64,000 nt of DNA from Minisyncoccia bacterium (GTDB lineage Bacteria > Patescibacteriota > Minisyncoccia > Moranbacterales > GCA-2747515). Each line of letters begins with the position of its first letter. Position 1 is the stretch's first letter. Position numbers and translations under genes: made by a program. A model generated the notes under the pieces. That model worked only from the letters and a program-made list of their open reading frames with translations, was not told the origin of the DNA and did no database searches. Where the stretch lies: contig JBGSQF010000013.1 in the NCBI GenBank assembly GCA_041738235.1, positions 257,899 to 321,898 of the forward strand. The letters are read 5' to 3'. Of this stretch, positions 1 through 25,630 are shown piece after piece.

Positions 1-44
1 TAATGCGATCGATCGCTGAAGATGTCTATTGGCCATAAAGAACT

Positions 45-254
45 TTATGCTTTTTTCTTCGCTTTTTTGGTTGCTTTTTTCATTGTATCCACAACTTCCT
101 TTCCTTTGTATTTTCCACAATTCGAACACACTCGGTGCGGTGTCTTGGGCGATCCACAATCAGAACAAACTCCAATATTTTTTGGTTTTTGCTGATATTG
201 AACACGTTTGCGATTCACTCTTCCTTGCGAATGACGTTGCTTTGGTACCGACAT
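45..254 (-). CDS. rpmF: 50S ribosomal protein L32, Zn-ribbon type; starts at an internal Met of track ORF 45..341
   Basis: MSVPKQRHSQGRVNRKR...VCSDCGSPKTPHRVCSNCGKY matches the L32 N-terminal signature and 4-Cys ribbon. Lys-rich tail. Confidence 0.8.
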   Translation of the reverse strand: MSVPKQRHSQGRVNRKRVQYQQKPKNIGVCSDCGSPKTPHRVCSNCGKYKGKEVVDTMKKATKKAKKKA

Positions 255-513
255 ATCTCGTTTCTTGAACCTGTTTACGATCTCGCCCGAGTAAGAGCCA
301 AAAAGGGCTTGTCGGTCAAAATTCCAAAAGTTCGGCTGCAAACCGTTTAGATCTCGTCGAAATACGATGGTATTTCTCCTTAACCTTCACGCCTTTCGCT
401 CGAAATTGTGAAATTTATGACTCGACACGAGTTCGTAAACAGGTTCTCACTAAATAATTACTTCCCCGAGGATACCAAAAAAATCAAAAAAAAGCAAATA
501 TTACATGTCTGCG

Positions 514-2025
514 CTACTCTTCGAGAACTCTTACCACCCCCGTATTAGCATCCACCTCCACCATCATACCATCCTTGAGAACCTTTGTAGCGATCTTGGT
601 ACCGATGATGCAGGGTTTTTTGAGCTCGCGAGAAACGATTGCTGCGTGACAGGTGACCCCACCTGTATTGGTAACGATCGCAGATGCCCTGTGGATAGCG
701 AGCATGAGCGTAGGATTGGTCGAGTAACTCACCAACACATCCCCCTCTTGCATCTTTACAACGTCGCGAGAACGATTAATGAGCTTCACCTTGCCTCGCG
801 CTATACCGGCGTACGCCACATCTCCCCTAAGCTCAGTTACTTTCTCCAATGATGTATCTTTTTCGACCACAAACATTTTCTCAATTCTTTTTCCCTGTTG
901 CCCCGTGATCAACTGTGTTTTTTTCCCTTTTAACGTATAGACCGTAAAAGCATACCGGCTATTTAAAACACTCTCATCGATCAAAGATCGGCCATCTATA
1001 AGAAGCTCCCCATACTCAGCAAGCGTTATATATCGCGCCTGCACTGATGTCCAATAAAACCGTCTTCCAATCTCGCGAAACCATGCTCCCATTACATAAC
1101 TCAGTTGGTATTGCTGATACTCTTTCCGACATTCCTTGGCGTAGGCCAGATCTCGAAGTATTTGTATCTCCTTATACACACCTCGCGGCAAGATCTTCTG
1201 TATTTTTTTATCCAATTCGCGTAATGATCCTTCCTCACGAATATATCGCTTTTCTTGGACAGATGGATCCTTATGCATATACCGTCCTAAAACATCCACA
1301 TAATACTCTTTCCCTGCCCCGATATCCATATAGTATGTCTGTAGCCATCCGTACTGACGCACCAAAGCCATGATGGACCGTTTCATGCTCATCGAAAGAA
1401 GTTTATACTCTTTTTTGCGGACCGCACCAACAGATCGTAGATCTTTTTTTACTTTTACGGCTAGTTTCAATATGGCACGCTGCTCCTTATACGTCAGTGT
1501 TTTCCCCAAGGGCGTGATCGCTTTTGCATACACCTCTTCAGGATTTTTAAATGACCTCAGGTACGGCATAACATGCGCCTTGACGCGTGTAGAATATTTA
1601 TCTGATCCCATTTCTAAGAACTGCCCGAACATTCCCCACGTCCAACACTCAGAGAACAGATCGTACGCCTTCTTGTAGATACCAAACAAAACCTTGTTCG
1701 AACAGCGAGAAAGGTCCTTCTTCTGTAGGGACGCGTTAAACCTCTCAATATCTTTGATGCGTGCAAATGTATTTTTGAGTATCTTCTCAATGAACTTCGG
1801 ATCTTTCTCAAGCATTTGCTGAACATAAATACCGCCTTGACTGAACTTTTTATCATTCACCCCCCATTTTATATGATCCTTCTTCCATACAAAGACAGCA
1901 TCCATGCTCAACGCTCCATCGCTCAATCTATCAAGACGCCTACTCAAAACATCATCATGCAAAATGTACCATGGATAAAATGGCACATTATAATCCTCCA
2001 ATATCGTGGTGTATTTCTGAGACAT
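514..2025 (-). CDS. Paralog 1 of the array: divergent N-terminal domain + C-terminal PEP-utilizing-enzyme phosphohistidine (swivel) domain
   Basis: C-terminus ...GDVLVSYSTNPTLMLAIHRASAIVTNTGGVTCHAAIVSRELKKPCIIGTKIATKVLKDGMMVEVD matches the PEP-utilizers mobile-domain motif GG.TSHAAI.ARE(L)G.P..VG. N-terminal ~380 aa of an unrecognised family. Confidence 0.8.
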   Translation of the reverse strand: MSQKYTTILEDYNVPFYPWYILHDDVLSRRLDRLSDGALSMDAVFVWKKDHIKWGVNDKKFSQGGIYVQQMLEKDPKFIEKILKNTFARIKDIERFNASLQKKDLSRCSNKVLFGIYKKAYDLFSECWTWGMFGQFLEMGSDKYSTRVKAHVMPYLRSFKNPEEVYAKAITPLGKTLTYKEQRAILKLAVKVKKDLRSVGAVRKKEYKLLSMSMKRSIMALVRQYGWLQTYYMDIGAGKEYYVDVLGRYMHKDPSVQEKRYIREEGSLRELDKKIQKILPRGVYKEIQILRDLAYAKECRKEYQQYQLSYVMGAWFREIGRRFYWTSVQARYITLAEYGELLIDGRSLIDESVLNSRYAFTVYTLKGKKTQLITGQQGKRIEKMFVVEKDTSLEKVTELRGDVAYAGIARGKVKLINRSRDVVKMQEGDVLVSYSTNPTLMLAIHRASAIVTNTGGVTCHAAIVSRELKKPCIIGTKIATKVLKDGMMVEVDANTGVVRVLEE

Positions 2026-2052
2026 AAACTACCCCCAAAAAAAAATTTATTC

Positions 2053-3615
2053 CTATTTTTGTACTATCCTTACGATCCCCTCATCCGCATTTACTTCTAC
2101 TTTCATCCCATCCTGAAGCACCTGTAAAGCCATTTTGATCCCGGTTACACAAGGCGTACCGAGTTCACGAGAAACGATAGCTGCATGACACGTAATTCCA
2201 CCATCTTCCGTTACAATAGCCGAAGCCAATTTCATTGCTGGCACCAATGACGGAAAAGTTGTATGTGCCACCATAATATTTCCCCTACTCATCTTGGGTA
2301 TCTCTTCCGGAGTATTTACAATAACCACTTTCCCACGCGCTTGTCCTGAACAAGCGCATGTTCCTCGGAGTTCTTTGCTTTTCGTATCCACCATGACTTC
2401 CTTAATATTCTGTTTTTCAAAGAAACTCCTTGCTTGGTCCCCAGTAAGTATACGAAATTTCCCCTTCTTATAATGCATAACAGAAAATTTCGCCCGTGCA
2501 TTTATCTCTATCATATCAGGATCTCTTTTCCCCGAAAGTGCTTCCCATATCTCCCGATGTGTCATGGTATGAAGTTGGTTGAGAGAAACAAACAACCTTC
2601 GAGAGATCTCTGTAAGCACCCGATCGAGCACATATGAGCCGAAGAATACACATTCTTTGCGATACCCCTTGAGAAATACAATATCAGCGGCAATCTCAAA
2701 AAACATCTGGTCTTTTTTATTTATACGAAGTTTTTGAACAATGGTTTTCTGTTCTTTTTTGACCTTATTTTGCCATCCCTGAAGACGCGACAGTTCTTTT
2801 TCTATATCAAACTTCTGTTTCAAGAGATGTGACCAGTTCTTCAAATAATGATCTATCTCATATGCGGGACCAAGATACCCAAAGGGCATCCATCGCCACT
2901 TCTCAAAATGTTTTTCGATCGCACGTCGTACATCCGATTTCACAGTATCGGGAATATGAGAAAAATCTTTCATCGTTAAGATTGACTTTTTTGAGCGTGC
3001 ATCGGCCTTAATTCTTCGTAATACTTTAAGAGACTCCTTTTCTTCTTTCATTCCAAGACTTTCCTCAGGAAGCGTTGTAAGAATACTGAATGCGTCGGCA
3101 AAATTTATATCTGACCCCGATCTCTTTACGAGGTCTTTTGCTTTTTCAATAAGCGCTCGAGAAAGGTCCTCTCCATCGCTGTCGACGAACCAGGTTGTTA
3201 TCAGTGCGTGCTGATGGGCCTTCTCCTGCCATCCCAACAGTTCTAAGAATATCTTCCCCAACTCTTTGTTTGTCAATTTCCCAAGGTCCTTGCGAAGTGT
3301 CTCCTTTGCAAAAGACAGGTACGCGCTATTTATCTCATATGTTTTCTTATGTACGGCATTGATCTTTTTTGGGTGGGTGTGGATAAGATTAATCGTTTTA
3401 TCGATTAAGGATCGCAGTTCTTTTGCCAAAAAATACCCGCCCAAGTTATACACCCCTTGATAGACAAAAAAACGTTCACCTAAAAAGACATCAGCATACC
3501 GAGGGCCAAACAATATTTTTTCCGCATTCGTCATCCCATACAAGCAAGGTGGGACTAAAAGATGGTATCCGCACTTATCCACCGAAAAATTTTTCACAAA
3601 GATCCGCTTAGCCAT
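2053..3615 (-). CDS. Paralog 2: divergent N-terminal domain + PEP-utilizing His domain (most divergent C-terminus of the set)
   Basis: ...GNIMVAHTTFPSLVPAMKLASAIVTEDGGITCHAAIVSRELGTPCVTGIKMALQVLQDGMKVEVN. Confidence 0.75.
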   Translation of the reverse strand: MAKRIFVKNFSVDKCGYHLLVPPCLYGMTNAEKILFGPRYADVFLGERFFVYQGVYNLGGYFLAKELRSLIDKTINLIHTHPKKINAVHKKTYEINSAYLSFAKETLRKDLGKLTNKELGKIFLELLGWQEKAHQHALITTWFVDSDGEDLSRALIEKAKDLVKRSGSDINFADAFSILTTLPEESLGMKEEKESLKVLRRIKADARSKKSILTMKDFSHIPDTVKSDVRRAIEKHFEKWRWMPFGYLGPAYEIDHYLKNWSHLLKQKFDIEKELSRLQGWQNKVKKEQKTIVQKLRINKKDQMFFEIAADIVFLKGYRKECVFFGSYVLDRVLTEISRRLFVSLNQLHTMTHREIWEALSGKRDPDMIEINARAKFSVMHYKKGKFRILTGDQARSFFEKQNIKEVMVDTKSKELRGTCACSGQARGKVVIVNTPEEIPKMSRGNIMVAHTTFPSLVPAMKLASAIVTEDGGITCHAAIVSRELGTPCVTGIKMALQVLQDGMKVEVNADEGIVRIVQK

Positions 3616-3740
3616 ACCCGTTCAGAAAAAGAAATTATAACCCTCCCTACTCTCATCCTAAACCACAAACACGAAACATTCAAGCATTCTCAGACAATAA
3701 AAAATGAGAAAAACCTTTGTTCTTACGCTGTCACGGGGTA

Positions 3741-3769
3741 TTGACAAGTATGGTTAAATATGCTATACT
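3741..3769 (+). promoter_or_regulatory. Consensus sigma70-like promoter TTGACA-17nt-TATACT driving the plus-strand gene at 3843
   Basis: ttgacaagtatggttaaatatgctatact. Perfect -35 hexamer, 17-nt spacer, -10 TATACT, about 70 nt upstream of an AGGAGG Shine-Dalgarno (3832-3837) and ATG 3843. Confidence 0.6.
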
Positions 3770-3783
3770 GGAACGTTCGGAAA

Positions 3784-3800
3784 GTCGAGAACCTCTCGAC
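3784..3800 (+). promoter_or_regulatory. Perfect 7-bp inverted repeat (gtcgaga-acc-tctcgac) in the 5'UTR between the promoter and the SD; candidate operator or RNA hairpin
   Basis: gtcgagaacctctcgac is a perfect palindrome located between the -10 element and the ribosome-binding site. Confidence 0.35.
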
Positions 3801-3842
3801 TCCGGGCAATACCTCAACAGCAATTTAACATAGGAGGTCCTC

Positions 3843-4340
3843 ATGGACCAGAAAAAGATTTACGTTATAACCCATGGGTTGCGGGACGGGGGGTTCAACC
3901 CCACCCACAACCTCGAGGGTCACAGACAGATAACCCAGATCGCCCTCAGAATCGTCACGGAAACGCCCCGCGTTCCCATGATCATGAGTGGGGTCGGCGA
4001 GCGGTTCCTCGAGATTGTCGACACCCTCCTGAATGCGGGCATCGAGGCCGACGAGATGAAATATTCTCCCCTTTGTGGAACCCATGCGGGCCTCGACACA
4101 GGTGACGGCGGAACCAGGGTCGTCGTCTTGGGTGAGACCATGACGATTCCCTTCGACGACTGGTACTGGGCCCCGCCCAGCGTCGTCGACTACTGGGCAT
4201 TTCTCAACGAGTTGCCCGACGGCGCCGTAGTTTGCGCCGGGGGGGAGCTGATGATCTCCCTCGGCGGGCAACCCCATAAGGGTCGCCTCTTCGAGGTCGA
4301 CCCCGAGGCCCGTACCATCACCGATATTACCAACAGCTAG
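3843..4340 (+). CDS. Small protein (165 aa) on a high-GC island of foreign composition; possibly a divergent histidine-phosphatase-superfamily (SixA/PGAM-like) protein
   Basis: GC about 58-63% over 3.84-4.42 kb versus ~40-45% in flanks. Strong AGGAGG SD, unlike neighbouring genes. IYVITHGL (RHG-like) near the N-terminus and LCGTHAGLD (SHG-like) mid-protein resemble the two His motifs of the histidine phosphatase fold. The only plus-strand gene in the array. Confidence 0.5.
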   Translation: MDQKKIYVITHGLRDGGFNPTHNLEGHRQITQIALRIVTETPRVPMIMSGVGERFLEIVDTLLNAGIEADEMKYSPLCGTHAGLDTGDGGTRVVVLGETMTIPFDDWYWAPPSVVDYWAFLNELPDGAVVCAGGELMISLGGQPHKGRLFEVDPEARTITDITNS

Positions 4341-4472
4341 CCAGAGCCGTCAGCAGGCGCAAAGACGCCAGAAGGCCGGAGACATGCCATGTGATTTACA
4401 CTCACTGCGCATGACTCCGACCTTTAAAAATGGAAAAAATATTTTTAGGCTCTTCTGTCCCTCTGCATCATT

Positions 4473-5936
4473 TCATATTATCTTCACTGTCCCTTGGTGA
4501 GCGTCTACCTCTACCATCATACCATCCTTCAAAACCTTCGTGGCGATCTTGGTACCGACTATACAGGGGATCTTGAGTTCGCGAGAAACGATAGCGGCAT
4601 GGCATGTAATGCCCCCCTCCTCAGTCACAATGGCACTTGCTTTCTTCATGATCGAAACAGCTTCTGGACGAGTCATGCCAGTCACCAATATTTGGCCATC
4701 ACAAAAAGAATCTTGTTCTTTCTGAAAATGTCGTATGACCTTAACCTCTCCTCTCACTACTCCGGAAAAAGCAACTTGGCCCCGCAAGGTATCTTTCTGA
4801 TTCTGTACAGTTTGCGAGAAAGTGAATTCCTCGATCACCTTTTTATTCTCATCAAAAAGACCATTCTGCTTTTCTACGGATCCATGATAAGGAATAAGAA
4901 ATGATACTCCCGTTCTCTTTCGCTCCTTTATCTCTTCTAAAACGCTTTTGAGATACTTTGCTCCGCGCAAGATCTCAAAATATGAACAGTAATAAATGTA
5001 TTCATTCTCCAATCCAATATCTGAGAATAGGGGTTCTACCAAGCGATAAAGCACTGCAAGTGTTTTTCCAATAGTGTCTTTACGCAGATCCCGCATCTCC
5101 ATGATATATTGCAGATAATCTGCGAGTTTTTTTTCCCCCAAAGAGAGTGTTTGGCACATCTGTTTGAAGTGTTCACGCTTTCTCATAGACTCTTGCTCCC
5201 GCTCCTGCAAGACTGCCTTGGCCCTCGAGCGGAACGAACCATACTTATCATCAAGAGCCCTTAGCGTTTCTTTGTATCCCGGAACATAACTATAGTTAGC
5301 CTCAAAATACTGACACTTGTTTATCAATTCTTCATCTGGTAGCTCCTCCAAATAATAACAAAGGATCTGCTTCTCTCTGCGAATTTCAAAAGAATCCGCC
5401 ACCAAAAAACTTAAGTCCTTCCAAAGAAGATCTAAACGTGCTTTTGAAATGTCCGCTTTTAACTCGGTTAAGATCTTCCAACATAATTCCTGATCAAAAT
5501 AGATCGAAAAATGAGCTGCGGCGTTCATGTGCCATGTAGCATCTTTCATCTTTTCGACTCTGCTGGCCACCCATGAGAAAGAGTGTTGATCAATACATTC
5601 ATACGTGGACCCTTCGTATAACTTATCAACTTCTCGCATAAACCCGCGGATCAACGCATCTCTTTGGTGCAAATATAAAGGATCATTCCAACACTTCATA
5701 AACACCTCTCGAGTCATAGCCTTCATGGCGGTCAATGAAAGATGCATTGATCCACCATGCGCATCCTTGTCTACAAAAGAAGAGTACTGTATTGGACTTT
5801 CATAATACGAGGAGAAATACACGTCCTGATTCCATCCGCTACACTGAAAAAACGGTGACGCGTTGCGAATCGGCGGGGACATCTCTTGATCCCACATCAG
5901 GTCGATATATGTATCTGCAATAAGATTCTTTCTCAT
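4473..5936 (-). CDS. Paralog 3: divergent N-terminal domain + PEP-utilizing His domain
   Basis: ...GQILVTGMTRPEAVSIMKKASAIVTEEGGITCHAAIVSRELKIPCIVGTKIATKVLKDGMMVEVDAHQG. Confidence 0.8.
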   Translation of the reverse strand: MRKNLIADTYIDLMWDQEMSPPIRNASPFFQCSGWNQDVYFSSYYESPIQYSSFVDKDAHGGSMHLSLTAMKAMTREVFMKCWNDPLYLHQRDALIRGFMREVDKLYEGSTYECIDQHSFSWVASRVEKMKDATWHMNAAAHFSIYFDQELCWKILTELKADISKARLDLLWKDLSFLVADSFEIRREKQILCYYLEELPDEELINKCQYFEANYSYVPGYKETLRALDDKYGSFRSRAKAVLQEREQESMRKREHFKQMCQTLSLGEKKLADYLQYIMEMRDLRKDTIGKTLAVLYRLVEPLFSDIGLENEYIYYCSYFEILRGAKYLKSVLEEIKERKRTGVSFLIPYHGSVEKQNGLFDENKKVIEEFTFSQTVQNQKDTLRGQVAFSGVVRGEVKVIRHFQKEQDSFCDGQILVTGMTRPEAVSIMKKASAIVTEEGGITCHAAIVSRELKIPCIVGTKIATKVLKDGMMVEVDAHQGTVKII

Positions 5937-6024
5937 ACCTGTTACCAGTTACCCTTCAAAATTCTCACTGCCCCCTTCTCCGCCCTCCTCCGTCAAACCT
6001 CTGGCGGGTAAACATCCACCAAAA

Positions 6025-7512
6025 TTATATATCTTTCAATATCTTTACCACTCCTTTATTAGCGTCAACTTCTACCATCATACCATCTTTCAAAACCTTT
6101 GTGGCGATCTTGGTGCCGATGATGCAGGGTTTTTTGAGTTCGCGAGAAACGATGGCGGCGTGACAAAGGATCCCCCCCTCATCGGTAATAAACGCACCGG
6201 CACGTTCCATTGACGCTATGAAGTTCGGCGTAGTCATCGTAGCAACAAGCACATCACCCTTTTCAACACTCTCACCATCCTCGGGAATCAGAACGATCTT
6301 CACTTTCCCAACAACTTTACCCCGAAATGCTGTAACACCGTTAAAGCTCTGTACGAGTTCAGCACTTTGGTCAAAGACAGACCTTTCAGATATATATAGT
6401 GCTGCGGCGTCTCCCGAGAGAACACCGTAACCCGTTTCATCAGAATAACACAACATATCCCGTTTCCTCTCTAACAATTCCGCCTGATGGTCATACTTTC
6501 CCTGAAGCGCTTCGGTTACCTCGCTTGGTTCGAAATATAGTATGTCATGGTATGAGATGTTCAAGCGCTTTGCGGCTTCACGAAAAAGTGGTTGCATCAA
6601 AGCGCATGCGTGATGGAAATAATCCGCGCGCTGAGTTCTCAGATAGACAATATCCCGCACTTGATAGACCATCTGCATATCCTCCGAGGTCATGATCTCT
6701 TGCATCCGTCGAAGTGAATGGTCCACTTGATCCTTGTGTGCTTCATCCTCTTTCAAAGCCTGAACCGCCTCCTCATAGCTCAGTAACTTCAATCGTGCTT
6801 TAACATCTCCTTCCGTCCACCATGATCCGACAAAATACCGAACTCCCAACCATCCAAATGATCGCACATGTTCCCGAATTCTTTCATCAATGTTCTCTTT
6901 TCTAAGAAGTACAAGATCCAGAAGATGCTTTCGCTCCCTGTCCGTGTCCGTTGAACGACTCGAACATGTTGCCGCCTCGAACCAACTCTCATATTCCTGT
7001 TCGGTCGATGCATGCTCCCGCAAGATCCGATCCACGATATCCATCTCCGGCTTCTCGAAAAATGCGATCGTATACCAAGCGCTATATGTTGAGGCTCTAT
7101 CAGCAAATACACCTATCTTCTCACACAGATCGTTCGTTAGTAGCGCCTCAAGATCCTTTTCCACTAAGAGAGACTCCGATAATTTGACCAAGTCTTCACC
7201 AGCAGACTCACAATCCTTTATAAGGTTGTCAATATACTCTTTTCCTTCTGTCTCTATCTTTTTCCGCACCTGAACAGCAAACTGATCACGCTTATCAAGT
7301 ACATTAAAGAAATCATAATTATGTTTCTCATGATCGGCGATATGCTTAAACCACGGAACAGGATGTGTTAATTGCATTGCTTGAGATAAGACCTCCACAT
7401 CCTCAAGCCCCCTGAGTATAAGAGAGGATGCCAGGAAAGGTTCCGTTCTTTGCCCGAAATATACGATATTGTCATTATCTATCTTTGGGATTTCCCTCTT
7501 TGGTCTTCTCAT
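6025..7512 (-). CDS. Paralog 4: divergent N-terminal domain + PEP-utilizing His domain
   Basis: ...GDVLVATMTTPNFIASMERAGAFITDEGGILCHAAIVSRELKKPCIIGTKIATKVLKDGMMVEVDANKG. The 3' ~100 nt are nearly identical to paralog 6. Confidence 0.8.
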   Translation of the reverse strand: MRRPKREIPKIDNDNIVYFGQRTEPFLASSLILRGLEDVEVLSQAMQLTHPVPWFKHIADHEKHNYDFFNVLDKRDQFAVQVRKKIETEGKEYIDNLIKDCESAGEDLVKLSESLLVEKDLEALLTNDLCEKIGVFADRASTYSAWYTIAFFEKPEMDIVDRILREHASTEQEYESWFEAATCSSRSTDTDRERKHLLDLVLLRKENIDERIREHVRSFGWLGVRYFVGSWWTEGDVKARLKLLSYEEAVQALKEDEAHKDQVDHSLRRMQEIMTSEDMQMVYQVRDIVYLRTQRADYFHHACALMQPLFREAAKRLNISYHDILYFEPSEVTEALQGKYDHQAELLERKRDMLCYSDETGYGVLSGDAAALYISERSVFDQSAELVQSFNGVTAFRGKVVGKVKIVLIPEDGESVEKGDVLVATMTTPNFIASMERAGAFITDEGGILCHAAIVSRELKKPCIIGTKIATKVLKDGMMVEVDANKGVVKILKDI

Positions 7513-8195
7513 ATGTTGACAATAGACTCTTTTTTTATGATCTTTACCACCCCATTCTCCACATCTACTTCGACCAGATCCCCGTCTTTCAAAACCTTTG
7601 TGGCGATCTTGGTTCCGATGATGCAGGGTTTTTTGAGTTCTCTGGCAACAATGGCCGCGTGACAGAGCATGCCTCCCTCATCGGTTATGAATGCCGACGC
7701 CCTCTTCATAGCCGGCAGAAACTCGGGAATGGTCATCGGAGACACGATAATCTCTCCTTCTTGAACCTCCAAAACATGCCTAAGGTTTCGAACAACTCTC
7801 ACAAGCCCCCTGATTGACTCTCCTTCATATGCAGTTTGTCCGATAATTTCTTTCACTAAGATCTTGGATGTCTTCTTATTCTCAAAAAGTAAATTCGGAT
7901 GTTTCTTTTCAAATTTAGACAATCTTTCCTGTTCCCCATATGCACCGGGAATATATACAAAATGCTCACTCCTCAATCTAAGGACTTCCGACGTCGGAGG
8001 ATTTCTTATTTCTTCTTCAAGAATATAATTTTGATACCCTCTCAACTCAGGATAAAGAACTTCCAACGTCGCAGAAAGAACTCTTCCTCCGATATCAAAA
8101 TACTCATCTCCACTCCTCCAGCTCTTCACAATCCCTTTCAACTCTTCTGGGGTTCTACTATCTAGTAGTGTATTCCAAATATAAAAGAAATGCAC
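7509..8195 (-). CDS. Paralog 5, truncated (228 aa): retains the linker and PEP-utilizing His domain but lacks most of the N-terminal domain
   Basis: ...GEIIVSPMTIPEFLPAMKRASAFITDEGGMLCHAAIVARELKKPCIIGTKIATKVLKDGDLVEVD. ATGA start/stop overlap with paralog 4. Confidence 0.6.
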   Translation of the reverse strand: MHFFYIWNTLLDSRTPEELKGIVKSWRSGDEYFDIGGRVLSATLEVLYPELRGYQNYILEEEIRNPPTSEVLRLRSEHFVYIPGAYGEQERLSKFEKKHPNLLFENKKTSKILVKEIIGQTAYEGESIRGLVRVVRNLRHVLEVQEGEIIVSPMTIPEFLPAMKRASAFITDEGGMLCHAAIVARELKKPCIIGTKIATKVLKDGDLVEVDVENGVVKIIKKESIVNI

Positions 8196-8261
8196 ACAAT
8201 ATTTCTTGAATTGTTTTGCAAATTCTTTTAATTCAAATGCGCTCGATAAATTTTTCTTCTG

Positions 8262-8558
8262 CTAAATTGGATAGAAATACTCCTTCTGAATACTCTCAAA
8301 GTCATTAAGAATTTTCTCCAAAAAAGACAAGCTTGTTTTATTTTTAGACAGTATCTTATCCTGGATATATCGGACGGACTGCGAATTTTCCCATATCTCA
8401 ACTGCTCCATCATGTAAATAATATACAACTGGATACTTAAAAGGCAAAGATATATGCAACATCTTCTCTATGCCAAGAGAATTCGCATAATACCACGCTG
8501 CTTGCGTGATAATCTGTCGATCTCGAGTATAGGCCAACTTAAGAACCTCTTTTTGCAT
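8262..8558 (-). pseudogene. Orphan N-terminal fragment (98 aa) of an array paralog; with 7509..8195 it looks like a decayed or internally deleted copy
   Basis: PFKYPVVYYLHDGAVEIWE resembles the paralog 1 N-terminus PFYPWYILHDDVL. The locus is ~450 nt shorter than intact paralogs and split over two frames. Confidence 0.45.
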
Positions 8559-8567
8559 AGTTCTTGC

Positions 8568-9890
8568 TTATCTTAGTATTTTTACCACTCCTTTATTAGC
8601 GTCAACTTCTACCATCATACCATCTTTCAAAACCTTCGTGGCGATCTTGGTTCCGATGATACAGGGTTTTTTGAGTTCGCGACTCAATATCGCCGCATGG
8701 CATGTAATACCCCCTTCCTCGGTCACAAATGCACCGGCCTTTCTGAGAATGGGCATCATATCAGGCGTCGTCATGTTCGCAACCACGATATCGCCCTCTA
8801 CAAATTTCGCGAAATCTTCAGGATCACGAATAATCTTTACGAGACCGGAAATTTTCCCCTGAGATGCCACCGTTCCCGTCAGCGAAGAAACATCCTGCAC
8901 ATCTTCTTTGAGACACTCTTGTATTTTCCACATGTCCTCCCCAACAACGCATCGAACGGCGCCGTCCGCCACAACTATAGAATGTGCCCATGTTCGTTCT
9001 TGAATAATTCTTTTAGGAGGAATCTTTCGTTGTGTGACTTCCTCGGGCATGCAATGCAAGAGTTCTTGATACGTGAGGTAAAACGTATCGGCAAGCGCTT
9101 CCAGCCTTGGAATATACGCATAGGTTGCCTTATTGAGCATATCCGTCCGATGTGTCCGATAAAATACGATATATTGCATCAAATCTACCAAATAGGACTG
9201 TCTTGGCCCAAGTATTTCTTTGGCACGACGTATCGCATTCTTAATACCCTCTTTTTCCTGAGCATACCCATTAAGATAGTTCTCTTCCTCCAGGATACGC
9301 TTATTCTCCGTCGCAGCCTCAAAAGTATACGGGATATTTCTCCCATACCGCGAGAGTATCCATGCGTATTCTTTAATGTGCTTTCGTATATCACGCGTCG
9401 TCACAAGATCATATTGTTCTTGCTTGTAATAATTATTCCTCAATGGGATATTTAACGCATCCAACAATAACTTCATCTCCGACTCCGATGCATTCTTTGC
9501 CAATTCCGTTCTCATGCGCGCAAAAACGAGTTCGTCCCAAGCCCATATTATCAAAACAGCGGGGGAATAATTTTGAAAAGCGGTGAGAAAATCCTCAATA
9601 CCTTTTTCCGTTGAATGCATCAGTTTCTCCTCACGACGATCGAATTCCATTTGTATTCGCCCGAAATCCTCCTGTGTGATCACTTTCTCCAAACATGCCT
9701 TGCAGGCATTCATATTATATGTTTCATACCAATATTCATGATTCGCAGAAATAGCGTCAGTGATAACAACGGGATTATCAAGAAGTCCGACATAATCTCC
9801 AGGGTAAGACATTCCCCTCCAAATAGATCCGAGTAGAAGAGGTGGATAATTCCGGGTTACTGTGCGAAAAAATTTTTTTTGTTGCACCAT
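8568..9890 (-). CDS. Paralog 6: divergent N-terminal domain + PEP-utilizing His domain
   Basis: ...[69 protein letters not shown]. Confidence 0.8.
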   Translation of the reverse strand: [440 protein letters not shown]

Positions 9891-9899
9891 AAGGACTCT

Positions 9900-11234
9900 T
9901 TACGGATTAAGGATTCTTACCACTCCACGCTCCGCATCCACCTCTACCAGATCCCCATCCTTGAGTACTCTTGTAGCGATCTTGGTGCCGATGATACAGG
10001 GTTTTTTGAGTTCTCGAGCAACGATGGCCGCGTGACAAGTAATGCCTCCGTCATCTGTAATGATCGCAACCGCCTTTTGCATTCCCAGAATATAAGAAGG
10101 GAGTGTCATAGTAGCCACAAGAATGTCTCCCTCCTGAATCTTTGATATATCCTCATCTCTCAAGATAGTCTTTGCAACTCCTCTTACTTTACCAGAATAG
10201 GCCACCCTTCCCTCAAAGAATGTAATATCCGAAAAACCCTCTTCAAGTTTCTTCTTCTGACTCACCGATGAAGTTCCAGAAATATTTTCATAACAATAGT
10301 GTCGCTTTCTCACTTCAAAATCAGGGCATATTCCCTTCTCCGAAAGAATCATTATCTCATCGAATGTAAGATAGAGAAGGTCCTCATACTTAAGTCCATG
10401 TTGAGTGGCTATCTGTGACCAATATGGTCGAAGTAAAACACCTATACGAGTCGTCGCGTCAGCGCGTTCATTCCGTAACCACACCATTTCTCGTCCCATT
10501 CGAATAACATCCTCAGAAATAGTATACTTTTTTATCGCCTCCTGTATGATCCGATCTGTTGCACGTTCCTCAAATTCCAACTGCTTAAGCTCCTCGATCG
10601 GATCCTCTCCATAAGAATGTAGACGCTTCTTGAGATCTTCCTCAGTGCTTGGCATTCGTTCGAAATATTTCGCGTTAGTCCACCCATAAAGATGAACGTG
10701 TTTACCCAGAGCTAACTCACTAGGATCTTGTGCAAGTTTGAGAAAGTCACGCCATTCCTGGCTCTCATAGTTTTTTCGTATCGGTGAACAAAGCGCGTGC
10801 AACTCTTCTTGGCTCATCCCATAATATGCAAGAAATTGCTCATACGCTTCGCCTGCCACGATGGGAACATACAAGAACGTTGAAAGATCGAGAAGTATCT
10901 TGTGAAGTTGTTTCAGATCTATGTCCTCGGATGAACAATATAGAACCGCATTCTCATAAAATGTTTTCCATAATTTCAACATCTCCCGCACATGTCCCAG
11001 GTCATTCACCCGGTAGAGATCCAGAAAGTATAAGACCAATCTTTCATACTCCTTTTCCAAAACATACACATCCCCACTGTAGGAAATGTAGTAATCGATA
11101 CCTGCGGGCATGTTCAATATCTTCTTTTGATCGCGAGAATTGATCCCAAGCGTCACTATATCAAACAAAAGAACGGGACCCTTCCTATTTACCGTACTTC
11201 TCAAGTTTTTGTTCTGATGCTGTGATTGATGCAT
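9900..11234 (-). CDS. Paralog 7: divergent N-terminal domain + PEP-utilizing His domain
   Basis: ...[65 protein letters not shown]. Confidence 0.8.
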   Translation of the reverse strand: [444 protein letters not shown]

Positions 11235-11265
11235 GCTATATAAACTATTTTAAGTTCGAAAATAC

Positions 11266-12207
11266 TTATGAAAGTGTCGTTATCGGTCTGCTTTGAGTGA
11301 TATAGAATTTTCCTTTATAGAGTGCCCATTCGATGTCACAAGGGAATTTGTAGTGATCTTCAATGCACTTAATAATTTCAGAGAGTTCCATGATCTGCTT
11401 ACCAGAAAGTTTTTGTTCATTGCGCTTCGAGAGTTCGACGGTCTTCCATTGGTTCTTTCCAGTCTTTGCGTCATATTCCAATTTCTTCTCCTGTTCAGAA
11501 ATATTAACATCAATGATGGTCTTGTTCTTCTTGGAAACCACATACGAGTCGGGGGTGATCGATCCGGAAACAATCGCTTCACCGAGTCCCCACCCGGCTT
11601 CAATGATGATCTGATCACGGTCCTCCGTCACAGGATGCACGCTAAACGCAATCCCCGATACCTCCGACTGGATCATCTCCTGCACCACGACTGCTACACT
11701 TACATGAGATTTCTTGAGCCCCTGCTCCATACGGTAAAATATAGCTCTTGGGGTAAAAAGTGACGCCCAGCATCGCTGAACATTTTTGAGAAGCGTCTCT
11801 TGTGTCGTATTGAGGAATGTATCCAATTGTCCCGCCCATGCCGCGCTCTGAGAGTCCTCCGCCGTAGCGCTCGAACGAACCGCGACATATTGTGTATCAA
11901 GTTTTTCAAATGACTTCTGGATCTCACTCGCAATATCTTCCGGCATCTTAGATCGAAGGATCATATCCTGAATACGTTCACTCGCATGCTCCACCGTATG
12001 CATCTTATCCTTCCCTACATCATTGATCTCACTATCCACCTCCACTCGCAGATCCGCCTCGTCGAGGAATTTTTCGAAGGCCTCAGCGATCAGAACAAAA
12101 CCCTGGGGAATCGGAAATTTAGCCTGCATCATTTCCCCAAGAGACGCGCCCTTTCCTCCAGCGATCCCCGCATCTCCCATTCCAATTTGTGAAAATTTCT
12201 TGATCAT
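11266..12207 (-). CDS. Stand-alone PEP synthase / pyruvate-phosphate dikinase N-terminal nucleotide-binding (ATP-grasp, PPDK_N) domain protein, 313 aa, with no His or TIM-barrel domain attached
   Basis: GGKGASLGEM, VAVRSSATAEDS, AGQLDTFLN, ASLFTPRAIFYR, AGWGLGEAIVSGSITPD and DIEWALYKGKFYITQSRPIT match conserved blocks of the E. coli PpsA N-terminal domain. The protein ends where the His domain would begin. Confidence 0.85.
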   Translation of the reverse strand: MIKKFSQIGMGDAGIAGGKGASLGEMMQAKFPIPQGFVLIAEAFEKFLDEADLRVEVDSEINDVGKDKMHTVEHASERIQDMILRSKMPEDIASEIQKSFEKLDTQYVAVRSSATAEDSQSAAWAGQLDTFLNTTQETLLKNVQRCWASLFTPRAIFYRMEQGLKKSHVSVAVVVQEMIQSEVSGIAFSVHPVTEDRDQIIIEAGWGLGEAIVSGSITPDSYVVSKKNKTIIDVNISEQEKKLEYDAKTGKNQWKTVELSKRNEQKLSGKQIMELSEIIKCIEDHYKFPCDIEWALYKGKFYITQSRPITTLS

Positions 12208-12236
12208 AAATCCTTTGTATTTAATAAGATTATCTA

Positions 12237-13739
12237 CTAAATGATCGTCACAACACCTTTGTTAGCATCTACCTCCACCAACATTCCATCCTTCAAAACC
12301 TTCGTTGCAACCTTCGTACCAATAATACAGGGCTTTTTCATCTCCCGACTCACGATAGCTGCATGACAAAGTATCCCTCCCTGATCCGTAACAAAAGCGG
12401 ATGCCTTCTCCATTGCCGGGATATAATTTGGATCGGTCATCGAGATAACCAGAACATCCCCTTGTTTCATCTTACGCATATCTTTTGTACTCTTCAAAAC
12501 ACGGCATGTCCCCCTTATAATTCCCGGAAAAGCGACGGACCCTCGAAAAGAATTATCCAACCGCTCCTCTTGATCATTTAAAAGGATACTCCGGGAAATG
12601 AGGTGAGCCACATCCCCCGTGAACACATACCGATCGTTACCCGCCATGATACCCACAAAAGCCTTTTTTCGTTCAGCTATGATATCTTTGTACGGTAACT
12701 TACCCAGAAGAGCCTGATGCACCTCGTTTGCATCCAAGTACTTTATATCAAGTACTTTTATCTTCAATAAAGTTGTGATCTTTACAATGATCGGCCAAAT
12801 ATTAAATAGTGCCACATGAACCACATCATTTCGAAAAGACCTCAAAAATCCAAATAGTTGAACGGTCATTGCTAAGTTATACAAATGAGGGATAGACTCA
12901 ATATCCTTCATGATTCGCCCCCTTAAAAGACGCAAACTTCTCTCTTGTTTTCTATATGTCTTATACTCATGTTCGATATCGGTCCGAAGTAGTTTCTGCA
13001 ATTTACGCATAAAGACAACTTCACCATATGGCTTCTCTTCCATTAAAACCATCCCGATCCATCCATGCTTCTTTGTGTGTTGAGCGATCTTTCTCTTTAC
13101 TAACTCAGAATCCATGCTCATCTGATGCGCCTTGATATAGCATGCCATTCGCATCAGACTACTTTTTTCCTCAAGTACAAATATTTTTCTGTCTGGCAAA
13201 GTAATTGCGCTGATAAAATCAAAATACTGATCCTGATCAAATCCTTTTTGATCACAATATATCTTGAACTTTTTCTCAAAGACTTCTGTAAGAAACAGAT
13301 CCACCAAATGCAAACTAAACATATACGGCATCATCTCTTTACACGATTGGATGACCTGAGAGTACATGCCTACCAACTCACTCTTTGACAGGCAAGGGAG
13401 GGGGGTTTTCCCCATCAGTTTCGAAAGATCCAATAGATCATCCCCCATTTTCAAACAGTTTTCGGCATAATGAAAGAGATACGTATCGTCTTTCCGATAT
13501 TCGCTTCGGATCTGCTGCGCAACCGCATCCCACTCCCTTTGTAGATCAAGGTATGCACCATCCTGTGTCCAAATACCAAATGTTTTACAAAAAGGAAAGT
13601 TTAATTTTTGCTGATATTTAGTTGATTCTCCCTCTCCATAGATCTCCAAATAAAGAGGGCTGGCATGCCACATTCCCCGCAGTCGCCACTTTTCATTCTT
13701 TATCCTGTCAAGAAGTATATTGAGTCTTTTTTTATCCAT
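12237..13739 (-). CDS. Paralog 8: divergent N-terminal domain + PEP-utilizing His domain; first gene of the array, 32 nt downstream of ribH
   Basis: ...[69 protein letters not shown]. Confidence 0.8.
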   Translation of the reverse strand: [500 protein letters not shown]

Positions 13740-13771
13740 TGGGATGCCAAAAAGAATTAACTCATCTCCTA

Positions 13772-14245
13772 CTATATCCTAACCATTTCCAATACTGCCT
13801 CAGCTGCCTCAGATCCCTTATTTTCCACCTTTCCACAGCGCTCTCGAGCCTGCTTAAGTGTGTTCACCGTCAAAATGCAATTCGCGATCGGCATATTATA
13901 CATAAGCATCACATCCATTGTTCCACGTGTCGCTTCGTTGGCAATGTAAACATAATGATCCGTGTCACCCCGAATAACACACCCGATCGCAATAAGAGCA
14001 TCATACCTCTGCTTCGACTCTGCCATTCTCTGACACGCCAGTGGGATCTCAAACCCTCCAGGAACGTATGCGACCTCAATATTTTTTTCTGTCACTCCAT
14101 TTGCCAACAAGGTTTTTTTAGCACCCTCAAGAAGCTTTTCTGTAATATCCTCATTGAATTTTGCCACCACAATGCCAATATGCAGCCTTCTTGCGTGTTG
14201 CCCCAAAATAACAGGCGCTTTCTTTACTGTTTGCTTTCTATTCAT
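13772..14245 (-). CDS. ribH: 6,7-dimethyl-8-ribityllumazine synthase
   Basis: HIGIVVAKFNEDITEKLLEGA...GVTEKNIEVAYVPGGFEIP...ALIAIGCVIRGDTDHY are typical lumazine synthase motifs. Confidence 0.85.
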   Translation of the reverse strand: MNRKQTVKKAPVILGQHARRLHIGIVVAKFNEDITEKLLEGAKKTLLANGVTEKNIEVAYVPGGFEIPLACQRMAESKQRYDALIAIGCVIRGDTDHYVYIANEATRGTMDVMLMYNMPIANCILTVNTLKQARERCGKVENKGSEAAEAVLEMVRI

Positions 14246-14395
14246 ATCACTCTAAAAATTTATGCCATTTAGGAACTCTCGACATTAAACCCAACTCTTC
14301 GATCAACTTCATCGTACCACCTCCCCACAACCAATACAAGAGAAAAACCGCCCTTATGAGGCGGCTCTATAAATACAATTTTATCAACAACATCT

Positions 14396-14845
14396 TTACA
14401 CTGCTTTGTCTTTTAGGATTGTCCCGCCTGACTTTTCGATTGCAGCACGTGCTGAATCGGTAAGTCGTATATTTGGGTTGATGGTCAGCTTCTTGGTCAA
14501 TTTTCCCGTCCCGAGAATCTTCACTCCAAATTTGATACCCGTTTTGTCCACCAAACCGGATCGCACAAATGATTGCATAGAAACAACATCTCCTTCTTGA
14601 AAGAATCGCTCGAGATCAGCCAGTGAAACGTTATTTTTTTCTGCATGAGGAGATTTGAACCCCTTGTTCTTCTTCATGCGCTCGATCAAAGATGACCGCC
14701 CTCCTTCAAACAATGGATCGATACTTACTCCCGATCGAGACTTCTGTCCCTTCACTCCACGACCACAGTACGTTCCACGTTTTCCGCCACGTCCAATACG
14801 CTTTCGACTCTTGATATTCCTCGATGAAATAGAATGGATTTGCAT
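14396..14845 (-). CDS. rplO: 50S ribosomal protein L15
   Basis: RIGRGGKRGTYCGRGVKGQKSRSG. Confidence 0.9.
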   Translation of the reverse strand: MQIHSISSRNIKSRKRIGRGGKRGTYCGRGVKGQKSRSGVSIDPLFEGGRSSLIERMKKNKGFKSPHAEKNNVSLADLERFFQEGDVVSMQSFVRSGLVDKTGIKFGVKILGTGKLTKKLTINPNIRLTDSARAAIEKSGGTILKDKAV

Positions 14846-14855
14846 ATAAATAGAA

Positions 14856-15446
14856 TTACTTCTTCACTTCTTTCTTCTTTGGTTGAGCGACCTCCTTTTT
14901 GCTCTCATCAACCTTCTTCACCACATCCTCCTTCTGAGGTTCGTCTTTCACCTCTCCATCCTGTTTCTTCTTTTTCTCTCTCAAATCGTGACGAATACTG
15001 TCCAAAGCCAATAAGGTTGCTTTAGCCACATTAATTTTATTGGATGTTCCAAAAGACTTTGACACTGTATCACGAATACCAGCAAGATCTGCTACTGATC
15101 GCACCGCTCCACCAGCGATAAGTCCACGTCCTTCCGGTGCACGTCGAAGCAATACTTTAGCACTTCCATATTTTGCTGTTACATCATGAGGAAGCGTATT
15201 TCCATCAAGGCGCACTGTGATCATACTTTTCTTAGCAGCAGCAAAAGCCTTGTTGATAGCGTCAGACACATCAGCACCCTTTGCTACTCCAACACCCACT
15301 TTCCCCTTTCTGTTTCCAATGACAAGTGTTGCACGGAATCGAAAACGACGACCTCCCTTTACCACACGGGTAACTCGGGCAAGGTCAAGAAGTTTTTGAT
15401 CAAATTCCGGCTTCTCTCTTTTCTGTTGTCTCTTGTTTCTTGGCAT
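14856..15446 (-). CDS. rpsE: 30S ribosomal protein S5 with a Lys/Glu-rich C-terminal extension
   Basis: VTRVVKGGRRFRFRATLVIGNRKGKVGVGVAKGADVSDAINKA. Directly followed by rplO with no L30 gene between them. Confidence 0.9.
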   Translation of the reverse strand: MPRNKRQQKREKPEFDQKLLDLARVTRVVKGGRRFRFRATLVIGNRKGKVGVGVAKGADVSDAINKAFAAAKKSMITVRLDGNTLPHDVTAKYGSAKVLLRRAPEGRGLIAGGAVRSVADLAGIRDTVSKSFGTSNKINVAKATLLALDSIRHDLREKKKKQDGEVKDEPQKEDVVKKVDESKKEVAQPKKKEVKK

Positions 15447-15475
15447 ATCCTCAATGTAAGATGTAGATTGATTTA

Positions 15476-15829
15476 TTAAAACTTGAGTCCAGCTTCACGC
15501 GCTCCATCAGCCACCGCCTTCACCTTCCCGTGATAGGCATACCCGGAACGGTCGAACACTGCTTCCTGGATCTTCTTTTCCAAACATCGTTGTCCAATCA
15601 ATTTCCCGATCTCTCGAGCCTGCTCTACGGTATCTTTATTAAAAGGTTTTTTCATCTCTTTCCAAGTGACACTTGCCAAAGTAATTCCTTTCTCATCATC
15701 GATCGCCTGTGCAGAAACACCACGCAAACTTCGAAAAACGCTCAGGCGAGGCTTTGTGCTCGTACCAGAGATCTTTGATCGAACACGACGTGCTCGTTGT
15801 AAACGGTGGTTATTCTTTGAAACATTCAT
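15476..15829 (-). CDS. rplR: 50S ribosomal protein L18
   Basis: KPRLSVFRSLRGVSAQAIDDEKGITLASV...GYAYHGKVKAVADGAREAGLKF. Confidence 0.9.
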   Translation of the reverse strand: MNVSKNNHRLQRARRVRSKISGTSTKPRLSVFRSLRGVSAQAIDDEKGITLASVTWKEMKKPFNKDTVEQAREIGKLIGQRCLEKKIQEAVFDRSGYAYHGKVKAVADGAREAGLKF

Positions 15830-15848
15830 AGACTTATCGTAGATTTAA

Positions 15849-16400
15849 TTATGATCCGGATCCAGCCTTCTTCCCTTCTTTGCGTCTCACGATCTCACCA
15901 ACATAACGGAATCCCTTTCCCTTATATGGCTCAACCGGCTTGAGCGCGCGGATGTTGGCTGTAAATTGCCCGACAGCTCTTTTGTCAATTCCCGTGATCG
16001 TCATTACGTTTCCCTCTATCTTTGCATCAATACCTTCAGGGATAGCCACAACAACAGGATGTGAAAATCCAAGTGCTAGATCCAATGATCTTCCCTTCAG
16101 AGCCATACGGTACCCAACACCATTCAATTCAAGCTGCTTCTGAAAACCATTTTTGACACCCAAGATCATGTTCTCCAAAATACGCGCTGTTGTACCCCAA
16201 AGCGCAGGTGACCGTTTTGATGAGCGAGCTACCGTAACGGCAACCTCTTTTGTCTCAGCGTTTACTTCAACAGACATCTCTCGTTCGTATCGAAAAGTAA
16301 GCGTCCCTTTCGGACCCTTAACGATAACCGTTCTGGGTTTCTCCATCTCAATGGTCACTCCATCAAGAATCTGCACTGGTTTTTTTCCTATTCGACTCAT
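15849..16400 (-). CDS. rplF: 50S ribosomal protein L6
   Basis: MSRIGKKPVQILDGVTIE...VKGPKGTL...KPVEPYKGKGFRYVGE. Confidence 0.9.
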   Translation of the reverse strand: MSRIGKKPVQILDGVTIEMEKPRTVIVKGPKGTLTFRYEREMSVEVNAETKEVAVTVARSSKRSPALWGTTARILENMILGVKNGFQKQLELNGVGYRMALKGRSLDLALGFSHPVVVAIPEGIDAKIEGNVMTITGIDKRAVGQFTANIRALKPVEPYKGKGFRYVGEIVRRKEGKKAGSGS

Positions 16401-25557: not shown

Positions 25558-25630
25558 TGGGCGCAGAGGGATTCGAACCCCCGACCGTTTGCTTAAAAGG
25601 CAACTGCTCTACCGACTGAGCTATGCGCCC
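25558..25630 (-). tRNA. tRNA-Lys (anticodon UUU), 73 nt, CCA encoded downstream (25555-25557)
   Basis: Reverse complement GGGCGCATAGCTCAGTCGGTAGAGCAGTTGCCTTTTAAGCAAACGGTCGGGGGTTCGAATCCCTCTGCGCCCA folds as a cloverleaf: 7-bp acceptor, GCTC/GAGC D-stem, anticodon loop CTTTTAA, and GGTTCGAATCC T-loop. Confidence 0.85.

Follow-up and report, generated by a model that had tools for sequence, protein, structure and literature searches.

Within a 64,000-nucleotide (nt) stretch of DNA from a Minisyncoccia bacterium (contig JBGSQF010000013.1, positions 257,899 to 321,898 of the forward strand; hereafter the window), one plus-strand gene at 3843..4340 occupies a short islet of high guanine-plus-cytosine (GC) content and is flanked on both sides by members of a minus-strand array whose eight paralogs all end in a histidine-bearing swivel domain. 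The explanation that best joins our observations, and to which we assign a probability of roughly 45%, is that this gene forms an autonomous unit whose product is a SixA-like partner of swivel arrays that would remove phosphoryl groups from them or regulate their phosphorylation, and that the GC richness of the gene is a property of its family. We refer to this family as THG, after the T-H-G motif that its members share. THG proteins are conserved antiparallel partners of swivel arrays resembling rifampin phosphotransferase (RPH), and the high GC and third-position C content of their genes is a persistent property of the family and not the mark of a recent import.

Predicted fold and active site of the THG protein

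Searches with the 165-amino-acid (aa) product of the islet gene returned no Pfam family at an E-value of 0.1 or better, only noise from NCBIfam and no family at curated thresholds, the histidine phosphatase model His_Phos_1 (PF00300) included. Nothing meaningful for this protein came from PHROGs, from PADLOC or from searching the Protein Data Bank (PDB) by sequence, and a PDB profile search recovered CobC only, at E = 2. A word-indexed protein search identified a single homolog, P0001, with 60% identity, and a HMMER scan of 1.84 billion representatives recovered 133 proteins at E ≤ 1e-3, with lengths of 150-200 aa in almost all cases. The family alignment comprises 78 of these 133 matches, and the residue counts given below refer to these 78; PF00300 matches five of them weakly, with a best E-value of 1.5e-5. 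When this alignment was supplied to AlphaFold, the predicted local distance difference test (pLDDT) score of the model rose from 46 for the single sequence to 94.9, with a predicted template modelling (pTM) score of 0.89. Foldseek comparison of the model with the PDB placed the SixA-like structures 3f2i and 2rfl on top, followed by CobC, PGAM5 and phosphoglycerate mutases. Together, the model and this ranking bear out the suggestion of an earlier note on this DNA, which was made from the letters alone, that the product is related to SixA: the protein is predicted to adopt a three-layer alpha/beta fold of the phosphoglycerate-mutase type, that is, the histidine-phosphatase fold, with SixA as its closest solved structure.

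The family signature reads T-H-G...NP...G..Q / G-T-G-x-R-F / S-P-x-C-G-x-x-D / C-A-G-x-E-L-M. Its first motif places His11 right after strand 1 of the model, where the nucleophilic histidine of the superfamily resides; Thr10 and His11 are each present in 69 of 78 members (88%) and Gly12 in 72 of 78 (92%), with N, C, P, Y or T at position 11 in the other nine. Arg54, which lies within the segment Gly50-Thr-Gly-x-Arg54 and occupies the place of the second arginine of the canonical core, where helix 2 begins, is found in 75 of 78 members (96%). Profile alignment with hhalign sets the THG motif on the RHG motif of SixA, pairing His11 with SixA His8, and sets Arg54 on SixA Arg55, and alignment to a canonical relative from the candidate phyla radiation (CPR) gives the same register, with Arg54 on the Arg of SSRLARA; both alignments extend over the N-terminal half only and score weakly. 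Also conserved are Asn/Asp19 followed by Pro20, the segment Ser-Pro-x-Cys-Gly79 with Gly79 invariant, an acidic residue (Asp/Glu82) in 88% of members, and Cys131-(Ala/Ser/Thr)132-Gly133-(Arg/Gly)134-Glu135. Position 10 is never Arg, and the Arg or Lys that 73% of members have at position 14 may compensate for the absent RHG arginine. The window protein itself carries His11, Arg14, Arg54, Gly79 and Cys131-Ala132-Gly133-Gly134-Glu135.

The earlier note had tentatively likened two stretches of this protein, IYVITHGL and LCGTHAGLD, to the pair of catalytic histidine motifs of the fold. The first assignment stands as far as the histidine is concerned, since His11 is conserved and aligns with RHG, but not for the arginine, which is replaced by Thr. 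The second does not hold: His81 is a histidine in only two of the 78 members, and the stretch around it corresponds to the family motif S-P-x-C-G-x-x-D. No second conserved histidine takes its place, as no alignment column besides column 11 is more than 46% His, and the canonical site of the second histidine, between the last core strand and the helix after it, is occupied by A/S/T-Gly; we place this site at positions 132/133 because the model has the strand at 129-132 and the helix at 134-139. Because the fold, the nucleophile and the second arginine are found and the first arginine and second histidine are not, the THG family is a divergent variant of the histidine phosphatase superfamily.

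Comparison with characterized members of the superfamily underlines this divergence. SixA of E. coli (PDB 1UJB/1UJC; branch 1), the nearest known structure, has a sequence identity of about 9% to the THG protein; it has R-H-G where the THG family has T-H-G, and its His108 is without a THG equivalent, the site being A/S/T-Gly. The two further differ in that THG matches in named genomes fall nearly all in CPR metagenome-assembled genomes (MAGs) and that the GC-rich THG gene lies antiparallel beside swivel arrays. CobC, PhoE, PGAM5 and dPGM (branch 1, PF00300) are larger proteins that, unlike THG, possess cap insertions and the full Arg-His-Arg-His core. All named members of the THG family are annotated as hypothetical and our literature search found no paper describing it; the family is unannotated, and neither its association with swivel arrays nor its persistent GC bias appears to have been described before. 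In one member, P0118 (332 aa), which appears to be a membrane-anchored variant, the THG domain leads into a linker rich in Ala, Pro and Thr, and a predicted transmembrane helix separates this linker from about 100 aa of C-terminal sequence.

Swivel-histidine arrays and the proposed role of THG proteins

The array in which the islet lies spans 514-13739 on the minus strand and encodes eight paralogs of 228-520 aa, which diverge in their N-terminal regions and share an almost identical C-terminal histidine swivel domain of the mobile type found in phosphoenolpyruvate (PEP)-utilising enzymes. The swivel motif, GG[IVM][TL]CHAA...KVLKDGMMVEVDA, retains its catalytic histidine in all eight paralogs. 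The divergent neighbour of the THG gene, at 2053..3615 (minus strand), encodes a 520-aa swivel paralog with GGITCHAA (Pfam PF00391, 1.3e-22), and the convergent neighbour, at 4473..5936 (minus strand), encodes a 487-aa paralog with a substrate-binding region and a C-terminal swivel that also reads GGITCHAA (PF00391, 1e-24); residues 206-486 of the latter match the Listeria rifampin phosphotransferase structures 5hv1/5fbs. The paralogs match these Listeria RPH structures over their last ~280 residues, which represent part of the substrate-binding domain together with the swivel domain. A stand-alone ATP-grasp (PPDK_N) protein is encoded at 11266..12207 on the same strand (Pfam PF01326, 4e-99), covers residues 1-313 of the PEP synthase and RPH models, and presumably donates phosphoryl groups to all eight swivel paralogs. 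Because of the RPH matches and the separate encoding of the ATP-grasp part, the array looks like a split phosphotransferase system of the RPH/PEP-synthase type with many substrate modules. PADLOC returned no match for the array. RPH combines ATP-grasp, substrate and histidine-swivel domains in one protein (PMC4844700), and split two-protein versions of such kinases exist, such as HpeHI, in which the ATP-grasp part is separately encoded as it is here (PMC12167813). The likeness to RPH concerns the partner system and not the islet protein, and RPH and its two-protein relatives, HpeHI and phenylphosphate synthase, each have one substrate module compared with eight or more paralogs here.

To follow the gene across genomes, we ran a degenerate DNA pattern for THG-x4-G-x-(N/D)P-x5-G-xx-Q against GTDB species genomes, JGI metagenomes and viral contigs and collapsed the loci at 95% identity, which yielded 50 unique genes. 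The GTDB species genomes contain 14 true family loci, as verified with the family hidden Markov model (HMM), all in low-GC MAGs, 13 of which are labelled as members of the Patescibacteria group (Nealson-, Staskawicz-, Falkow-, Doudna- and Saccharibacteria, Paceibacterota and Moraniibacteriota); the remaining one lies in a 36%-GC MAG labelled Gammaproteobacteria. The JGI metagenomes contribute about 40 further loci. There were no pattern matches in the viral contigs, and every match in high-GC genomes (Streptomyces and others) was rejected by the family HMM, so that homologs in higher-GC phyla, for which the earlier note had proposed a search, were not found by these scans. On the contigs of homologs with only 30-40% identity, swivel genes adjoin the THG gene on the other strand. 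Overall, a swivel open reading frame (ORF) is present in 24 of the 31 loci that have at least 3 kb of flank; in 21 loci it is no more than 300 nt away from the THG gene, 23 of the 24 have it on the opposite strand, and an ATP-grasp gene is also present in 10 of the 31. The connection that the earlier note drew between this gene and an array of phospho-histidine carriers is strengthened by this recurrence.

Some of these loci hold additional genes of interest. At the end of the contig of the closest ortholog (L001) lies a swivel C-terminus (MVEVDAERGVVKIL*). The gene that converges on the THG gene there, at 1042-2004 (minus strand), encodes a 320-aa protein with a canonical RHG...SPRIRTQET histidine-phosphatase N-terminus and a weak PF00300 match, and the gene after it encodes the swivel protein, of which only the C-terminus is on the contig. 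L002 carries a second THG copy at the other end of its array, at 135-614 (plus strand), which reads T-P-G and has lost the nucleophilic histidine; its GC excess is smaller (0.50 vs 0.43). In a Staskawiczbacteria locus with a THG gene (L100), a second and different SixA-like protein of about 180 aa is encoded at 3771-4322 (plus strand), with F-H-G ... SSRLARA ... ISHRP, the second catalytic histidine retained and a GC of 0.53 vs 0.40.

In the mechanism that we propose, the swivel histidine of the RPH-like array proteins would be charged by the separate ATP-grasp protein, His11 of the THG protein would take the phosphoryl group from the swivel phospho-histidine, and the group held on His11 would then be hydrolysed and released. 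The phosphate would sit in a pocket formed by Arg54, to which Arg/Lys14 and Asn19 likely contribute. A less likely target would be a phosphorylated threonine beside the swivel histidine, this Thr of the T-C-H motif being kept in five of the eight window paralogs. The outcome would be that a kinase system that spends ATP on phosphorylating its substrates is reset or restrained, much as SixA removes phosphate from the phospho-histidines of Ndk and of NPr, the latter being a carrier that receives its phosphoryl group from a PEP-utilising enzyme (PMC7948535, PMC6282199, PMC12934123). A functional analogy is offered by PSRP/PDRP (DUF299), small accessory proteins that control a dikinase through its swivel-histidine loop; these are bifunctional kinase/pyrophosphorylases of an unrelated fold and have no homology to THG proteins. 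In PEP synthase, PSRP targets the Thr of the T-C-H motif. To our knowledge, no SixA-like partner has been described for RPH, HpeHI or phenylphosphate synthase.

Several observations weigh against this proposal. The family lacks two of the four residues of the canonical core, the RHG arginine being replaced by Thr and a second conserved histidine being missing, and the window protein and its ortholog have Ala82, and thus lack the otherwise conserved acidic residue at this position, with His81 alongside. Furthermore, no swivel gene is found within the available flank in 7 of the 31 loci, and the pairwise identities of THG and ATP-grasp proteins agree only weakly (rho 0.25), which leaves room for cassette exchange among CPR lineages. 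Two other functions for the protein are serious competitors, given that half of the canonical core has been replaced. The stronger of them, which we nonetheless consider unlikely, is that THG proteins are pseudo-phosphatases or adaptors that would serve as sensors, chaperones or stoichiometric inhibitors by binding either the ATP-grasp protein or swivel domains in their phosphorylated state. The loss of the RHG arginine and the second catalytic histidine is what would be expected of such proteins, His11 itself is lost in some members (the second L002 copy and others among the nine noted above), and the structural matches include the Huf/tau55 domain and a flea acid-phosphatase pseudoenzyme, both known as inactive members of the superfamily; by contrast, the retention of His11 and Arg54 across most of the family, together with Arg/Lys14, Asn/Asp19, Asp/Glu82 and Glu135, resembles a maintained active site. 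Less probable again is a small-molecule phosphatase, which would dephosphorylate the products of the RPH-like paralogs or an unrelated metabolite in the manner of CobC, PhoE or the riboflavin-pathway HFP.

Base composition and transcription of the islet

GC content reaches 0.607-0.617 across 3901-4350 in 300-nt windows, compared with ~0.38-0.47 on either side. For the 64-kb window as a whole, 500-nt windows have a mean GC of 0.437 with a standard deviation of 0.029; the ten richest all fall at 3701-4650, their maximum of 0.61 lies about 6 standard deviations above the mean, and the islet is the strongest compositional outlier present. The ORF at 3843..4340 has a GC of 0.60, with 0.60, 0.42 and 0.78 at codon positions 1, 2 and 3, respectively. 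This third-position value (GC3) exceeds that of 30 long host ORFs (0.426 ± 0.037, range 0.35-0.51) by about 9.6 standard deviations, and C occupies 51% of third positions in the islet ORF vs 14.6% in host genes. Windowed GC and codon usage therefore uphold the claim of the earlier note that the islet departs from its surroundings.

The source of this excess lies mostly in synonymous codon choice. Rewriting the 165-aa protein with host codon usage gave a GC of 0.483 and a GC3 of 0.434, which leaves amino-acid composition a share of between one quarter and one third of the excess, against about two thirds for synonymous choice, and rules composition out as the main cause. Head-on orientation is ruled out as the cause by the plus-strand gene at 26341-27849, which has an ordinary GC of 0.44, and translational selection or high expression alone is ruled out by the EF-Tu gene of the window, with a GC3 of 0.43, and by ribosomal-protein genes of ordinary GC. 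Antisense ORFs are present at 3825..4277, 3920..4141 and 3982..4200. Relative to the 60%-identical ortholog, substitutions in the plus frame number 50, 32 and 81 on codon positions 1, 2 and 3, a pattern which indicates that the plus frame is coding and that the antisense ORFs are by-products; this excludes them as genes, in agreement with the earlier note, which had called them spurious and had taken the plus-strand ORF as the sole real gene.

The same excess recurs throughout the family. Where the flanks of a unique gene extend to 1 kb or more, gene GC is higher than flank GC in 43 of 44 cases (median excess +0.143, interquartile range 0.10-0.19, Wilcoxon p = 2e-13), and it correlates with host GC (Spearman rho 0.43). 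The most extreme member, at 2914-3450 (minus strand) of L077 and present also in L093, has a GC of 0.74 and a GC3 of 0.96 on a contig of 36% GC; it converges on a swivel gene and is preceded by an AT-rich TTGACA-N17-TGcTATACT promoter that is typical of the family. Of the 73 GC islets in the 353 kb of sequence from these loci, 34 are THG genes; the others are marginal and lie over ordinary conserved enzymes.

Sequence features on either side of the coding region suggest that the islet is a self-contained single-gene transcription unit that is probably strongly expressed. Upstream lies an extended -10, near-consensus sigma-70 promoter, TTGACA-N17-(TG)cTATACT, at 3741..3769 (plus strand), which matches the consensus at 11 of 12 positions plus the TG, is the top promoter-like site in positions 1-16000 of the window and is kept in the alignment with L001. 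Promoters of the form TTGAC[AT]-N16-18-TAnnnT, mostly with ATGCTA, precede 33 of the 43 unique family genes that have enough upstream sequence. The predicted leader of about 67 nt starts with a stem-loop at 3777..3805 that holds a perfect 7-bp inverted repeat, GTCGAGA/TCTCGAC at 3784-3800, whose arms we verified, and the 70-nt segment 3776-3845 folds with -19.1 kcal/mol (z = -2.75 vs shuffles). A Shine-Dalgarno sequence, AGGAGG, follows at 3832..3837, 5 nt upstream of the ATG. The promoter, palindrome and AGGAGG are thus all located where the earlier note had placed them, and its remark that neighbouring genes are without a clear Shine-Dalgarno sequence is likewise confirmed, as such a motif is absent from 10 of 12 minus-strand genes at 514-15446, including those for ribosomal proteins L15 and S5. 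Its idea that the palindrome could be an operator fared less well: L001 retains little of the hairpin (z = -0.4), and of the 33 homologs whose promoter can be recognised just 13 have a 5' hairpin of dG <= -8 kcal/mol, which argues against a conserved operator. The stem-loop may instead act as a 5' stabiliser of the mRNA. In L001, positions 130-225, upstream of the THG promoter, contain a further inverted repeat (~23 nt; GGGGACTGGCACGCCTGTCCCCG ... CGGGGACAGACATGTCAGTCCCC), to which nothing in the window corresponds.

Downstream of the gene, a 27-nt tail at 4353..4379 (GCAGGCGCAAAGACGCCAGAAGGCCGG), within which a small hairpin lies at 4356-4369, is 100% identical to L001 and hence more conserved than the coding region. 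It occurs once in the window and, among 122 loci, in L001 only, which rules out a dispersed repeat. A long GC-rich stem-loop at 4371..4425, between the two convergent genes, is a likely terminator or 3' stabiliser; the region 4338-4450 folds with -37.7 kcal/mol on the plus strand (z = -4.5) and -44.5 kcal/mol on the minus strand (z = -5.4), and in L001 the outer stem is conserved and the inner stem differs in sequence yet remains paired. The U-tract of this stem-loop is weak on either strand (UUUAAAAA), which makes read-through conceivable in both directions. Strong Shine-Dalgarno sequences and hairpin terminators are general among family members. Rfam searches found no RNA family in the islet, either with the whole window at gathering scores or with 3600-4500 at E-values up to 10.

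These features bear on the possibility that the islet is GC-rich because of a role of its RNA or DNA beyond encoding the protein. Candidates are a highly stable, structured mRNA, antisense interplay with read-through from the array and GC-biased gene conversion at a recombination hot spot. As a rival this possibility ranks below the two protein functions considered above and we regard it as improbable, though it is compatible with any of the functions of the protein. It would account for a GC3 excess that amino-acid composition, orientation and high expression alone leave unexplained, and it fits the 5' and long 3' hairpins, the conserved antiparallel arrangement and the absence of a good U-tract from the inter-gene hairpin on either strand. 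In addition, shuffles that preserve synonymous usage indicate extra-stable folds in eight of nine correctly framed genes (z = -3.2 for the window gene, mean about -1.8). However, the folding z-scores vary widely from gene to gene (+0.8 to -4.0) and come from a small sample of genes, Rfam gives no match, and the substitutions are of the coding type. A broader version of our proposal can be advanced only tentatively and is, taken as a whole, doubtful. In it, THG proteins would be dedicated phospho-histidine erasers or gatekeepers of a CPR-specific split dikinase that consists of many paralogs with RPH-like modules, and their GC- and third-position-C-rich coding sequence would persist across the Patescibacteria radiation because selection or biased conversion targets this one gene, through its RNA or its DNA.

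A foreign origin was the interpretation given in the earlier note, in which the gene had been acquired horizontally and had landed in the array; it is not supported in view of the family-wide recurrence of the GC excess, promoter, terminator and antiparallel context. Because the excess, the promoter and the context all recur in divergent homologs from low-GC genomes, a recent import from a high-GC source is disfavoured. Atypical composition is the one hallmark of an acquired islet that we observe; a patchy distribution, a matching donor and mobility functions are not seen, and the islet flanks yielded no convincing repeats or mobility genes. A 22-nt inverted repeat (3502-3523 / 4432-4453, 86% complementary) does bracket the islet, and it is an AT-rich self-complementary run (AAAAATATTTTT) whose left arm lies within the coding region of 2053-3615, which excludes a cassette with terminal inverted repeats; the repeat is probably due to chance. 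Phage origin is excluded by the lack of any viral-contig match. Thus, recent transfer from a high-GC donor, with chance insertion between paralogs and independent regulation, is largely refuted and very improbable: the outlying GC and GC3, the gene's own promoter and terminator, the conservation with L001 of a promoter-gene-terminator cassette next to a different adjacent gene and the weak agreement with ATP-grasp protein identities speak for it, and the GC excess in nearly all divergent homologs that tracks host GC, the conserved position beside swivel genes, the AT-rich, family-typical promoter and leader even in L077, the failure of high-GC pattern matches against the family HMM and the absence of viral matches, convincing repeats and mobility genes all speak against it.

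Elsewhere in the window, EF-Tu is 87-93% identical to Moranbacteria/Parcubacteria EF-Tu, and SecY, EF-G, DnaJ and ribosomal proteins are also encoded; these sequences identify the host as a CPR bacterium. A gene for lumazine synthase (RibH) at 13772-14245 (minus strand) directly adjoins the array, ahead of the L15 and S5 genes, and a tRNA gene lies at 25558-25630 (minus strand).

Significance for CPR bacteria

Phospho-histidine phosphatases are few, and even the substrates of SixA, NPr and Ndk, have become clear only recently. If our proposal is true, THG proteins would constitute a second, divergent SixA-like family, hard-wired beside swivel proteins, and each such locus would present a testable enzyme-substrate pair. 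They would also provide a handle on a highly paralogous kinase system in CPR bacteria, which are uncultured and poorly understood, and whose RPH-like modules are readily mistaken for antibiotic-resistance genes. Beyond the function of the protein, THG genes lie 10-38 GC points above their hosts across deep divergence, which calls for caution in the detection of horizontal transfer from base composition. A gene-specific compositional signature that is able to mimic horizontal transfer would, if true, be an evolutionary phenomenon in its own right.

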